Of a stretch of DNA of 64,000 nt, positions 7,622 through 14,657 are shown piece by piece. The notes below the pieces were generated by a model. The model saw only the letters and a list, made by a program, of their open reading frames with translations, made no database searches and had not been told where the DNA came from. The DNA lies in assembly GCF_055900595.2 (NCBI RefSeq), contig NZ_CM148325.1; one strand, written 5' to 3'. The first letter of the stretch is position 1, and the number at the start of each line of letters is the position of its first letter. Position numbers and translations under genes: made by a program.

Positions 7622-8191
7622 ATGTTAAAAAAAAGTGCTATTGCTGCGGCATTAGTGATGTTCACCACTTCTGCTTTCGCGCTGGATGGCGGTCAATTAG
7701 ATTTCGCGGGTTTGGTGAGTGACAACACTTGCGTCTTGCACGTCAACGGTGGCGCCCAGGACGGTCAGATTACCCTGCAAACCGCCACAACCACTGAAGT
7801 TAATCAGGCCGGTGTTGTCCAACTTGCCAGCCCTGGCGCAAAACCGGAAGCCTTCTCTATTACGATCGATTGCTCGGACGATCCACAGGGCGCCTCTGCC
7901 AATCTGAGCATGGGTTCCGTGTTCTTCAGCAACAGTCAGGGCACTCTGAACAACGATCTCTCCATTAGCCAGGCGGCTACCGGGGTCGCGATTGCCATTC
8001 ACTACCTTACCGATGCCACTACCTACGAACAGATGAGAGTGAACGACAGCACTGATGTTAAAAACCTGCTGTTTACCAACGGCAAAGCGGTTTACAACTT
8101 TAAAGCGTCATATGTAAAACAGGCAGCAACAGTTAACGCAACGGCAGGTTATGTCAAAACCAACGCCGCTTATACAGTGACTTACCAGTAA
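7622..8191 (+). CDS. yadN: Fimbrial major subunit (type 1 pilin family), yad operon
   Basis: ATG at 7622 preceded by AAGGA; signal peptide MLKKSAIAAALVMFTTSAFA; pilin-like length and a C-terminal Tyr-rich beta-strand (YTVTYQ). The track ORF starts earlier at a TTG with no ribosome-binding site. Confidence 0.85.
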   Translation: MLKKSAIAAALVMFTTSAFALDGGQLDFAGLVSDNTCVLHVNGGAQDGQITLQTATTTEVNQAGVVQLASPGAKPEAFSITIDCSDDPQGASANLSMGSVFFSNSQGTLNNDLSISQAATGVAIAIHYLTDATTYEQMRVNDSTDVKNLLFTNGKAVYNFKASYVKQAATVNATAGYVKTNAAYTVTYQ

Positions 8192-8248
8192 ATATCTGCA
8201 TCACCCGACAGCCCACGGGCTGTTGGGTCACTCAATAAGGATAGTGTT

Positions 8249-8992
8249 ATGACCAGGATGTGTCAGTTTGTTGTTTCCACTGTTTTCGTCGCATCGACAG
8301 CCGTTTTCAGCCTCACCGCGCAAGCAGATATTGTGCTTTCCGGTACGCGCATTATTTACAATGCCGACCAGAAAGACGTCACATTGCGCATGGAAAACAA
8401 AGGTGCCCGTCCACTATTAGTTCAGACCTGGATTGATACCGGCAGCGAAAATGCCGACCCCAGCACACTGAAAGTGCCTTTTACCGTGACGCCGCCGGTT
8501 TCCCGCGTTGATGGTAAAAAAGGCCAAACGGTAAAAATTGCATGGAACGCCAGCCAGACCCTTCCAGCCGATCGCGAAAGCGTTTATTGGTTCAATGCGC
8601 TGGAAGTCCCCCCCAAGATGAGCGATGCCGATGCCAAAGGAAAAAACATTCTGCAACTGGCTTTCCGTACCCGTATCAAGCTGTTCTATCGCCCAACCGG
8701 TCTGGCGGGTAACCCGGCTGATGCACCAAAACAGTTAACCTGGCGTCTTCAGACTTCAGCCGGAAAAGTGGTGCTGCAGGCGACAAACCCAACGCCTTAT
8801 CACGTCTCATTCAGCAGTATTACCCTTGCCTCAGGCGGTAACAACTATACCGTGGAAACCAGTATGGTCGAGCCAAAAAGCAGTGCGGAAATGGTGGTAA
8901 AAGGCGCTCCCCATTCTGTGTCTGGCGCAACGGTTGATTACTCAGCCATAAATGATTTTGGCGGTGGAATTGACGGCAAAGTCAAACTTTGA
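8249..8992 (+). CDS. yadV: Periplasmic fimbrial chaperone (PapD/FimC family)
   Basis: 247-aa ORF with signal peptide and the PapD-like N-terminal fold signature (IYNADQKDVTLRMENKG...). Confidence 0.9.
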   Translation: MTRMCQFVVSTVFVASTAVFSLTAQADIVLSGTRIIYNADQKDVTLRMENKGARPLLVQTWIDTGSENADPSTLKVPFTVTPPVSRVDGKKGQTVKIAWNASQTLPADRESVYWFNALEVPPKMSDADAKGKNILQLAFRTRIKLFYRPTGLAGNPADAPKQLTWRLQTSAGKVVLQATNPTPYHVSFSSITLASGGNNYTVETSMVEPKSSAEMVVKGAPHSVSGATVDYSAINDFGGGIDGKVKL

Positions 8993-9024
8993 TGCCCACA
9001 GACCATATCGGCTGAGATCGTACA

Positions 9025-12228: not shown

Positions 12229-12825
12229 ATGAACTATCACAATATAACCTTTGTCTTGCTGCTGTGCTTTGGATATATCGCCATCGGCCACGCCGCCAGT
12301 AGCTCTATGGACGTTACGGTACGCGCTAAGGTTACTGCCAGTACCTGCACGGCTGAATTACGCAATGCGCAGGATCAGCAAGCCACCACCATCGCAATTG
12401 GCGATGTCTATCTCAACGAGCTTTCCGCTAAATCGAAATACCAGAACTTCAGCCTGGTGTTTTCAAACTGCGAAGGGTTAGCAAAGGATCAGGCAAAAGT
12501 TGTGCTTTCTGCACAGACGGGCTGCGATGGTGCTTCCAGTACCGGTGGCGGATACCGTAATGCACTGACGACGGCGGACGATGATGCGGCAACCGGTGTT
12601 GCGGTTGAAGTGTGGACGACCAACCAGCCAGAAGGTCAGGGCAGCATTCAGCTTAATTGTAAAACCAAACCGACCAGTATTGTCGATTTAGCCACGGCAA
12701 CAGGATCGAATATTGTCCACTGGCCGCTCAGTGCCCGAATTGTTGTCGCATCGGATAATACCATCGCGGATGTCCGTGCAGGTCAATTCTCCACCAATGC
12801 TATCTTTTCTGTAACCTATGAGTAG
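12229..12825 (+). CDS. yadL: Fimbrial minor subunit-like protein
   Basis: Pilin-like ORF ending SVTYE; ATG at 12229 chosen (AGCAGG upstream). The track ORF starts 2 codons earlier at a TTG. Confidence 0.8.
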   Translation: MNYHNITFVLLLCFGYIAIGHAASSSMDVTVRAKVTASTCTAELRNAQDQQATTIAIGDVYLNELSAKSKYQNFSLVFSNCEGLAKDQAKVVLSAQTGCDGASSTGGGYRNALTTADDDAATGVAVEVWTTNQPEGQGSIQLNCKTKPTSIVDLATATGSNIVHWPLSARIVVASDNTIADVRAGQFSTNAIFSVTYE

Positions 12826-13398
12826 ATGATGATGAAAACATTTATCTACATGTTTGCACTGTGGTTTTCATACAACGCCATTGCAGCCAGCACCAATATT
12901 AATATGACTGCCAATATCATCAGCACCAGTTGCCGGGTCACGCTCGACAATAACGGCAATATCGATTTAGGCACAGTGGATTATAGCTATCTGAATAATA
13001 ATACCTCTGTCGATCGCGTCTATTCTGGCGGGCACCCCTTTTATATTACCGTCAGCGACTGCGCGCAGGTAGCGGGTAAAAATCCGGCCCACCTGACCGT
13101 CAGCTTTACGCCTCTGGCAGGTACTCTTGCGGCAACCAACCTCCAGGTATTCGCCAACCAGCAGGTCAACGGTGCAAAAAATGTCGGCGTGGTTATTTTA
13201 TCGACCGAGGACGCTCAGCATATTTTCAATGTGCTCGACACGCGTGGTCAACCGCAAAGTATCTACCCCGTGACGCCCGAAACGATCGCTAACGCGACAT
13301 ACCACTTTTACGCTCGGATGCAAAAAATTGACCCTACACAAGCGGTAACCAGCGGCGTGGTAAAAGCGAGCGTATTTGTTGGGGTCTATTATGAATAA
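12826..13398 (+). CDS. yadK: Fimbrial minor subunit-like protein
   Basis: 190 aa, signal peptide, C-terminal VFVGVYYE; starts immediately after the yadL stop. Confidence 0.8.
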   Translation: MMMKTFIYMFALWFSYNAIAASTNINMTANIISTSCRVTLDNNGNIDLGTVDYSYLNNNTSVDRVYSGGHPFYITVSDCAQVAGKNPAHLTVSFTPLAGTLAATNLQVFANQQVNGAKNVGVVILSTEDAQHIFNVLDTRGQPQSIYPVTPETIANATYHFYARMQKIDPTQAVTSGVVKASVFVGVYYE

Positions 13399-13424
13399 TC
13401 TACATCACTCTCAAGGATGAAGAG

Positions 13425-14657
13425 ATGAACACGCAACTTTTTTCCCGGTTTAAGCGGTGGTGTCTAACACTGCTGGTTCTGTTGCCCTTCTATTCAGGCT
13501 GCCTGCACTCTGCCGACACAATAATCGTCGGCGACAAAAGCTATTCAGGCTCGACGAATAACAATGCCGGGCCACAGGGGGATGGCAACGCAACGGCAAC
13601 GTTCAGCACAGGGGCGAATCAGATAGTGATCCCAACCTCAGCGGGGCTACAAAGTAGCAACCTCAGGCTCCAGTTGGGTTCGATGGATTCAGCCTCATCT
13701 GGAAATGGCCTGATTTACTGTGGAGCTGGCGGAATGGGAACACCATTAACCCTGGAGAGCCATTTCGTGGATGCCCAGGTGAGTGCTGATGGTCACAAGC
13801 TCTTTAAAACCAATGTGCAGGGTCTCTACTTCAGGATGCACATGTACCGTGTGAGCTCATTCAAAACAACCTCCAGCAGCGATATCTATATCGGTGATAC
13901 CCCCCAACAAACACTGACCTTAATTCCCGATAGTTCCGTATGCGTCGCCAATCAGGGAAAATACACAGCAATAGGCGGGCTGGTCAGTAAAATTGATATT
14001 GAGTTTTATAACGATGGAACCTTCAATCCCAATACGACAGGTAGCATCGCTTTACTGAGCAACAAGGGATATCACTATTCAGTGACAAATGCAGCGCCTG
14101 GTGGTGCATTGACCTCGCACTCTATTTATCAGACGTTCAACATGGGGAACGTGACGCTCAGCTCGCCAACCTGTACCTCAGCGGTCGTTTCGGGGAATAC
14201 AGTTCAGGGAGATACCGTCAGCCTCGGTGAATATAACCCCAAAGACATCATTGATGGCGTTGACGGCATCCCTTTTGGTATAGCACTAAAGAACTGTTAC
14301 CGGGTCACCAATATCGAGGTCAAAATGACTACCGGCGCCCCTGCAATGTCGGCTGCTTTATTGGGTAACTCGTTAACCGCCGAAGCCAATGCCGCCAACG
14401 GTGTAGGCGTCGAGATTAAAGGAAAATCGAACTCGCATTATGCCGAGGTTGTTCTTCACCCTAATGATACCCATTCTGTTTATAAAGCCTATGTCGATAC
14501 AGCTGACACGTCGAATGGCATTATTGGTTCAGGCACATCGGGAACCGCAGCAAATCAAACGCTAAATTTTGTCGCCACTCTCAAACAAGACAACAATCAA
14601 CAAATCAGAGGCGGTGATTTCAAAGCGACCGCCGTTTTCTCTATCACTTACCCCTGA
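13425..14657 (+). CDS. yadC: Putative fimbrial tip adhesin (two-domain, pilin-like C-terminus)
   Basis: 410 aa, signal peptide, Ser/Thr/Gly-rich N-terminal domain and pilin-like C-terminus (ATAVFSITYP); last gene of the chaperone-usher operon. Confidence 0.8.
   Translation: MNTQLFSRFKRWCLTLLVLLPFYSGCLHSADTIIVGDKSYSGSTNNNAGPQGDGNATATFSTGANQIVIPTSAGLQSSNLRLQLGSMDSASSGNGLIYCGAGGMGTPLTLESHFVDAQVSADGHKLFKTNVQGLYFRMHMYRVSSFKTTSSSDIYIGDTPQQTLTLIPDSSVCVANQGKYTAIGGLVSKIDIEFYNDGTFNPNTTGSIALLSNKGYHYSVTNAAPGGALTSHSIYQTFNMGNVTLSSPTCTSAVVSGNTVQGDTVSLGEYNPKDIIDGVDGIPFGIALKNCYRVTNIEVKMTTGAPAMSAALLGNSLTAEANAANGVGVEIKGKSNSHYAEVVLHPNDTHSVYKAYVDTADTSNGIIGSGTSGTAANQTLNFVATLKQDNNQQIRGGDFKATAVFSITYP

Follow-up and report, generated by a model that had tools for sequence, protein, structure and literature searches.

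Yad is a core-associated gamma4 fimbrial type and the equivalent of Salmonella Sta (PMC3559732). In E. coli K-12, CFT073 and EC958 its genes have the order yadN-ecpD/yadV-htrE-yadMLKC, lie between folK and panB, and are repressed by H-NS (PMC13245861). Yad types are also described as serum-induced, with a variable lectin domain in the tip adhesin YadC (PMC13245861). The classification of Wurpel et al. (2013) is based on the locus, and under it any operon between folK and panB would count as Yad. The O157 operon loc2, very different in sequence, is still named Yad (PMC7098969), and divergent loc2 orthologues have been reported from clade V isolates (PMC8718834). A 2026 survey counted a strain as Yad-positive if its usher was at least 80% identical to HtrE over at least 80% of its length (PMC13245861). 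By HtrE identity, roughly 30% of E. coli were Yad-negative, phylogroups D and E included, with none positive in phylogroup E (PMC13245861).

Here we describe the operon found at this site in a stretch of 64,000 nucleotides (the window) from contig NZ_CM148325.1 of RefSeq assembly GCF_055900595.2. The operon occupies positions 7622-14657. An earlier note on the same DNA gave its genes the names yadN-yadV-htrE-yadM-yadL-yadK-yadC. Position, gene order and gene sizes bear those names out, but the sequences do not, as the proteins are only 36-58% identical to those of K-12. We consider it probable, with good confidence, that this is a functional-looking classical (gamma-type) Yad/Sta-family operon in the chromosome of a cryptic clade I strain, that it represents a deeply diverged and separate cassette type, here called clade C, rather than K-12 yad, and that an operon of Escherichia albertii is its collinear counterpart.

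Divergence from K-12 yad

The proteins encoded beside the operon are close to those of K-12 (PcnB 99.6%, PanB 97.3% and PanC 98.2% amino acid identity). In global alignments with K-12, the operon's own products reach 51.5% for YadN, 53% for YadV and 58.5% for HtrE, and 37%, 36%, 40% and 36% for YadM, YadL, YadK and YadC. The NCBI annotation pipeline PGAP gave a yad or htrE name to none of the seven genes. With the Yad of K-12, CFT073 and EC958 the operon shares the folK-panB site, the seven-gene order, the gene sizes and a two-domain tip adhesin, whose N-terminal domain can be aligned with that of YadC end to end and has a Cys pair in common with it. It differs in its amino acid sequences, in its usher clade and in its upstream region, which is unrelated to theirs.

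Eight cassettes from the folK-panB site were compared, and their ushers fall into three clades. Clade A holds K-12, WL297, AST240 and ATCC 25922 (mutual identity 86-88%), clade B holds O157:H7 and 2017-02-2CC (69%), and clade C holds the window and LHM10-1 (83%). Identity of the window usher is 58-59% with clade A and 53-54% with clade B. At 58.5% amino acid and about 65% nucleotide identity to K-12 htrE, it lies below the 80% threshold of the 2026 survey. In a neighbour-joining tree with database ushers, clade C joins E. albertii, Pseudocitrobacter vendiensis and [Enterobacter] lignolyticus and is nearer to ushers of Citrobacter and S. salamae than to HtrE, the tree having been built without bootstrap and without an outgroup from other gamma4 types. 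Wurpel et al. (2013) take the grouping of an usher with HtrE in such a phylogeny as a mark of Yad.

Two further described systems occupy the same position, O157:H7 loc2 or "Yad" (ECs0139-0145) and Salmonella Sta, and both consist of a chaperone, an usher, several pilins and a large adhesin. The O157:H7 usher is 54% and the adhesin 22% identical to those of the window. S. salamae has a related operon between folK and panB; its ushers are 54-63% identical to the window's, and the locus fetched for the 63% group contains one pilin gene more. Both the O157:H7 and the S. salamae ushers belong to other clades of the tree than the window usher. The literature searches made turned up no published account of a clade C cassette. 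The operon belongs to the Yad/Sta family by its position and architecture; by sequence criteria it is not Yad.

Distribution, origin and selection

The cassette is rare. A megablast search with the operon against 5,426 complete E. coli genomes gave at least 80% coverage in 14 of them (0.26%), eight identical, three at about 97% and three at about 92%. Nine further genomes, of the LHM10-1 type, match at 76% over the first half of the operon. In a more sensitive search the usher was about 65% identical in nucleotides to the ushers of all other genomes, that is, all but these 23. A census by usher over the same collection counted 3,863 genomes with at least 80% nucleotide identity to K-12 htrE, 421 of the O157 type and one of the 2017-02-2CC type.

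The host lineage is narrower than the species. Core DNA at 17600-30000 of the window is at least 98.4% identical in 18 genomes and at most 95.5% identical in all others of the 5,426, and the whole window has a mean identity of about 95-96% to K-12. These 18 include 2013C-4282, which is a named strain of cryptic clade I. Published average nucleotide identities are above 98.3% within clade I and above 95.9% between clade I and E. coli sensu stricto (PMC10100065). Because the core split, the named strain and the published values agree, we assign the window to cryptic clade I. All 14 carriers fall within this group, and 14 of the 18 clade I genomes carry clade C; other clade I strains hold variants closer to the window's cassette than the E. 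albertii operon is. The remaining four of the 18 have a clade A cassette (three genomes) or a clade B-like one (one genome), and clade I genomes therefore hold three usher clades at the folK-panB site. Two of these four cassettes are frameshifted, in the chaperone gene of 2017-02-2CC (clade B-like) and in the adhesin gene of 2020CK-00188 (clade A).

The clade C cassettes are intact. All seven genes are complete, by annotation, in every one of the 14 carrier genomes. The earlier note had stated that all frames are open in the window, and this holds: no frameshift or premature stop interrupts any of the seven reading frames, and RefSeq NZ_CP098223.1, which contains a 100% identical stretch, is annotated there with seven coding sequences and no pseudogene flag. 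Ratios of non-synonymous to synonymous substitution rates (dN/dS, Nei-Gojobori) range from 0.03 to 0.26 against EC42405 and from 0.06 to 0.21 against N96, with dS of 0.07-0.36 (Table 1). The claim that the operon is still under selection is supported by these values for the cassette family, not for a single strain alone.

E. albertii has the same seven genes between folK and panB, and 14.6 kb align collinearly with the window at 85.8% identity. By feature, nucleotide identity is 88-93% in the flanks, 76-86% in the structural genes and 62% in the adhesin N-terminal domain. The E. albertii operon resembles that of the window in its seven genes, in an 89% identical usher and in a 96.4% identical upstream region; its adhesin differs, with 62-66% amino acid identity over the whole protein. 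In the public annotation the major pilin gene of E. albertii (176 amino acids; position 4637 of the fetched locus, L013) starts 39 nt downstream of an ATG conserved with the window, and is probably too short at its start.

A second relative came from an usher scan of 100,044 species-representative genomes, which used very specific peptide patterns and yielded a single locus rather than a census of species. This locus is in P. vendiensis CPO20170097T (NZ_CALSBS010000004.1), whose usher is 97% identical to that of the window. The operon as a whole is 92% identical and the flanks only 81-83%. About 8 kb of the locus, from yadN to the start of panC (4579-12580 of the fetched sequence, L010), agrees with E. 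coli N96 at about 99%. The panB gene within this segment is 100% identical to that of N96 and 94.7% to that of the window, whereas native P. vendiensis genes stand at 81-84%, and the DNA on either side of the segment is 70-84% identical to Escherichia. Homologous recombination between genera has apparently replaced the native DNA here in recent times. Because the segment includes an Escherichia-type panB identical to that of N96, the transfer would have run from Escherichia to Pseudocitrobacter. P. vendiensis also has an extra pilin gene upstream of the shared segment, at L010 3832-4404.

Three other readings were weighed. The operon could be ordinary E. coli yad, a set of strict K-12 orthologues with normal strain variation. 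It has the same site, gene order and gene sizes, and the same orientation with respect to folK and panB; a locus-based scheme would name anything here Yad, and the equally divergent O157 version is called Yad or loc2 in the literature. But the operon proteins stand at 36-58% identity beside flanking proteins at 97-99.6%, the usher has about 65% nucleotide identity to all but 23 E. coli genomes, and clade A ushers that agree among themselves at 86-88% reach only 58-59% with that of the window. Together with the failed HtrE threshold and an annotation free of yad and htrE names, this refutes the reading at the sequence level. Only a definition of Yad by chromosomal position and nothing else would rescue it, and we give it very little credence. 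It would be just as hard to sustain that the operon is a silent, decaying remnant, with frames intact by chance or through recent acquisition. H-NS does silence Yad operons, their expression in the laboratory is poor, and two of the four clade I genomes with other cassette types do carry frameshifts. However, the seven genes are annotated as intact in 14 of 14 carriers, the combination of dS and dN/dS values points to long-term purifying selection, and even the non-coding upstream region is conserved at 96.4% with E. albertii, all of which makes decay highly improbable.

Recent horizontal import from outside Escherichia, for example from Pseudocitrobacter, has more to recommend it, as the sole scan match lies in that genus with an operon much closer to the window than its flanks are, and relatives occur in P. 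faecalis and [Enterobacter] lignolyticus. We nevertheless think it unlikely. The P. vendiensis segment from yadN to panB is nearly the sequence of N96, the folK-panB site of E. albertii is occupied by a clade C operon collinear with this one, the G+C content of the operon (50.1%) matches that of the window (51.6%), and the type is present in most clade I genomes. Pseudocitrobacter as donor of the cassette was rejected on account of the Escherichia-type panB within the shared segment. An old polymorphism at a conserved site fits better than a recent foreign insertion, and the cassette behaves like one of the alleles of a locus that recombines and has been polymorphic since ancient times.

Several observations weigh against the view that the operon is a distinct and functional clade C member of the Yad/Sta family. 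The neighbour-joining tree of the ushers carries no bootstrap support. In NCBIfam, four proteins out of seven stay under the curated Yad/Sta cut-offs, and the YadL-like pilin gave no Fimbrial match in a Pfam search, its assignment needing the NCBIfam model. An ancient allele handed down vertically is hard to tell apart from one that moved among Escherichia lineages by recombination; at 96.4% against 92-93%, the upstream region has a higher identity to E. albertii than its flanks do, a hint of recombination. Finally, H-NS silencing, induction by serum, acid or temperature, and binding of xylose and annexin A2 are documented for clade A and O157 types only; the earlier note's picture of an operon cryptic in the laboratory, with an unsettled receptor, likewise carries over what is known of other Yad types.

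Proteins and adhesin of the cassette

The seven open reading frames were taken from a program-made list. They are uninterrupted, lie on the + strand and are tightly packed, with intergenic gaps of 0-57 bp (Table 1). The flank order pcnB-folK-[yad]-panB-panC-rpnC is that of K-12, inverted, and the wider neighbourhood, hrpB ... pcnB-folK-[operon]-panB-panC-rpnC-panD, corresponds to the K-12 map from 164 kb to 100 kb, also inverted.

Table 1. Features of the operon and its surroundings in the window, with dN/dS of the operon genes
Feature	Position	Strand	Size and remarks	dN/dS vs EC42405	dN/dS vs N96
folK (HPPK), upstream flank	6642-7118	+	ORF list		
AT-rich upstream region, putative regulatory	7119-7621	+	503 bp, 32.6% GC vs 50-52% elsewhere		
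Candidate -10 box TATAAT	7566-7571	+	followed by inverted repeat GGTGA-N6-TCACC, 7579-7594		
Major pilin, YadN/StaA-like	7622-8191	+	189 aa	no differences	0.21
GC-rich 11-bp hairpin after major pilin gene	8203-8228	+	RNA fold; no U tract; z-score only -1.8		
PapD-like periplasmic chaperone	8249-8992	+	247 aa; PGAP start 8258	0.17	0.14
Outer-membrane usher, clade C	9025-11631	+	868 aa	0.06	0.06
Minor pilin, YadM/StaD-like	11648-12217	+	189 aa	0.03	0.19
Minor pilin, YadL/StaE-like	12229-12825	+	198 aa; alternative TTG start 12223 gives 200 aa	0.05	0.14
Minor pilin, YadK-like	12826-13398	+	190 aa	0.10	dS saturated
Two-domain adhesin, YadC-like	13425-14657	+	410 aa	0.26	dS saturated
Adhesin signal peptide and N-terminal receptor-binding domain (predicted)	13425-14153	+	domain = residues ~29-243		
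Adhesin C-terminal pilin domain and stop codon	14154-14657	+	residues 244-410		
Terminator-like hairpin	14665-14690	+	RNA fold; 9-bp stem, 4-nt loop, UUUU; 8 nt past adhesin stop		
panB, downstream flank	14775-15569	+	ORF list		

NCBIfam matches of the operon proteins range from E=0 for the usher to 3e-33. Above cut-off are the generic chaperone, usher and PRK15262 models only. The chaperone scores 368 bits with NF007398 (cut-off 285), matches Pfam PapD_N at 3.9e-43 and PapD_C at 7.7e-19, and retains the subunit-anchoring pair as Arg8 and Lys118 of the mature protein, the equivalents of PapD R8 and K112. The usher scores 1359 bits with NF007337 (cut-off 830), and PapC_N, Usher and PapC_C domains are precomputed for a 99%-identical protein cluster (P0022). 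The YadK-like pilin scores 206 bits with NF011794 (cut-off 132) and matches Pfam Fimbrial at 1.4e-13. The remaining four are below their specific cut-offs: the major pilin (StaA, 1.5e-41, 142 bits against 230), the YadM-like pilin (StaD, 3.3e-33, 115 against 228), the YadL-like pilin (YadL, 1.9e-49, 168 against 206) and the adhesin (YadC-type model, 278 against 382). Three of these match Pfam Fimbrial, the major pilin at 3.8e-13, the YadM-like pilin at 3.1e-13 and the adhesin at 9e-11 over residues 246-409.

The translations give the same picture. All subunits have a signal peptide, a Cys pair, a penultimate Tyr and an N-terminal extension in which hydrophobic residues alternate; in the major pilin, which has all of these, the C-terminus reads TYQ. 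The earlier description of a complete seven-gene chaperone-usher operon between folK and panB is borne out by the reading frames, NCBIfam and Pfam, and on these matches the operon is a complete classical (gamma-type) chaperone-usher system.

Assembly of a fimbria on the cell surface is predicted from family membership. The subunits would be exported through the Sec pathway and capped by the PapD-like chaperone through donor-strand complementation, and would polymerise at the usher through donor-strand exchange. The two-domain YadC-like adhesin would enter first and come to lie at the fibre tip, the YadK-, YadL- and YadM-like minor pilins would be next, and a rod of the YadN-like pilin would follow.

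No part of the operon varies more than the adhesin N-terminal domain, in keeping with the expectation of the earlier note that the adhesin domain is among the variable loci. Against EC42405, 27 of 29 amino acid substitutions fall in residues 1-233, and dN/dS is 0.36 in the N-terminal domain and 0.05 in the pilin domain. Against N96, nucleotide identity over 13542-14141 is 51-56%. Within clade C, usher and chaperone are conserved; hypervariability is seen in the adhesin N-terminal domain and at the 3' end of the yadK-like gene.

The N-terminal domain had also been proposed as the receptor-binding module, and structure prediction agrees. An AlphaFold 2 model of the full-length adhesin, built from a 26-sequence alignment, has a mean predicted local distance difference test score (pLDDT) of 84, and its best Foldseek matches in the PDB are the two-domain tip adhesins FimH, FocH, LpfD, CupB6 and PapG. 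Modelled alone, residues 29-243 fold confidently (pLDDT 91.8, predicted template modelling score 0.89). The best structural matches of this domain are the fimbrial receptor-binding domains of AtfE, UclD, F17/GafD, LpfD and MrkD, so that a lectin-like N-terminal domain is present in the prediction. Sequence identity to the receptor-binding domains of AtfE, UclD, F17-G/GafD, LpfD, MrkD and FimH is only 9-14%. A PDB sequence search with the adhesin found no solved YadC and no relative of the N-terminal domain, the pilin domain alone matching FimA and FimF. The family is narrow, with 71 clusters found by an N-domain profile among 1.84 billion representatives. As modelled, the domain is a receptor-binding-like beta-sandwich. 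Because diversification is concentrated in the receptor-binding domain, this adhesin may bind another ligand than YadC of K-12 or CFT073 does.

Boundaries, upstream region and wider meaning

Similarity to K-12 ends at 7074, inside folK, and restarts exactly at the panB ATG. The last ~17 codons of folK (about 7066-7118), which encode the C-terminal tail of FolK, are different in every cassette type compared. Because of this difference, the left break-point of the variable block is placed inside the essential gene folK, and the FolK tail appears to move with the cassette. On the other side, panB has 88.9% nucleotide identity to K-12, compared with about 95% for the surrounding core. Alleles of panB are mosaic over lineages, the E. 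albertii gene being 95.6% identical to that of ATCC 25922, and the pattern looks like hitch-hiking beside a polymorphic locus. On the alignments, the folK-panB site behaves as a hot spot of cassette exchange.

The upstream region is likely to hold the promoter. By analogy with other Yad types it would be an H-NS-silenced promoter region, with transcription probably starting within these AT-rich 503 bp and ending at the hairpin after the adhesin gene. That hairpin, which we take as the probable operon end, was found by folding only; a consensus scan missed it, the tail having just four T. The hairpin after the major pilin gene is possibly an intra-operon attenuator or mRNA stabiliser, as in pap and fim operons. 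The candidate -10 box TATAAT is followed by GGTGA-N6-TCACC, 43 nt before the ATG of the yadN-like gene, the two forming an element at 7566-7594. Its TATAAT and both repeat arms are invariant in four clade C alleles, with an altered loop in LHM10-1, and the element was not found in the upstream regions of clades A and B.

Other candidates in this region did not hold up. A phase-variation switch was sought and rejected: the region contains no GATC site, its inverted repeats are weak, and nothing resembles fimS or pap. An Rfam search for structured RNA at E<=10 gave only noise (8-13 bits). Consensus scans for sigma-70 promoters and terminators found sites no more numerous than in shuffled sequence, and a 10/12 promoter match at 7213-7242, 380 bp upstream, is unsupported.

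Elsewhere in the window, yacH (33302-35161) is a second hypervariable gene in a conserved stretch. Its product, YacH (DUF3300), is 68% identical to that of K-12, at 28-92% per 50 residues, and has internal repeats. The panC-rpnC spacer contains, at about 16450-16550, a repeat of the enterobacterial repetitive intergenic consensus/intergenic repeat unit (ERIC/IRU) type with the core GTGAATCCCCAGGAGCTTACATAAGTAAGTGACTGGGGTGAGCG. K-12 has none there, its best match being a copy between aceF and lpd. Rfam gave gathering-level matches to PssrA (59251-59340, -), tp2 (41555-41668, +), STnc40 (53535-53604, -) and naRNA4 (52942-53019, -), all in regions syntenic with K-12. PssrA, described as a plasmid-encoded small RNA of Shigella, lies here at the chromosomal ftsA/ftsZ junction.

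The working principles of chaperone-usher systems are unchanged by this operon, which is ordinary in kind but a rare and uncharacterised member of its family. Strains that are Yad-negative by HtrE identity can hold a complete, selected and very different cassette at the same site. Cryptic clade I is an emerging source of intestinal pathogens (PMC10100065). Its adhesin repertoires are under-described, and anti-adhesion strategies directed against YadC (PMC6921372) would not necessarily cover clade C.

The locus is also a clean natural case of cassette exchange with break-points inside essential genes. It is tempting to go further, and we do so tentatively, judging the idea somewhat more apt to fail than to hold. 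The folK-panB site might act as a trans-species "docking site" where an ancient balanced polymorphism preserves whole cassettes, each with its own promoter region, adhesin specificity, FolK tail and linked panB allele. Homologous recombination would exchange them among lineages of Escherichia and even carry them into other genera, P. vendiensis being an example. On this view clade C fimbriae would be functionally distinct, recognising a receptor other than xylose or annexin A2, and would have a regulator-binding palindrome of their own. If this is true, the docking site would be analogous to O-antigen loci and the hitch-hiking of gnd.

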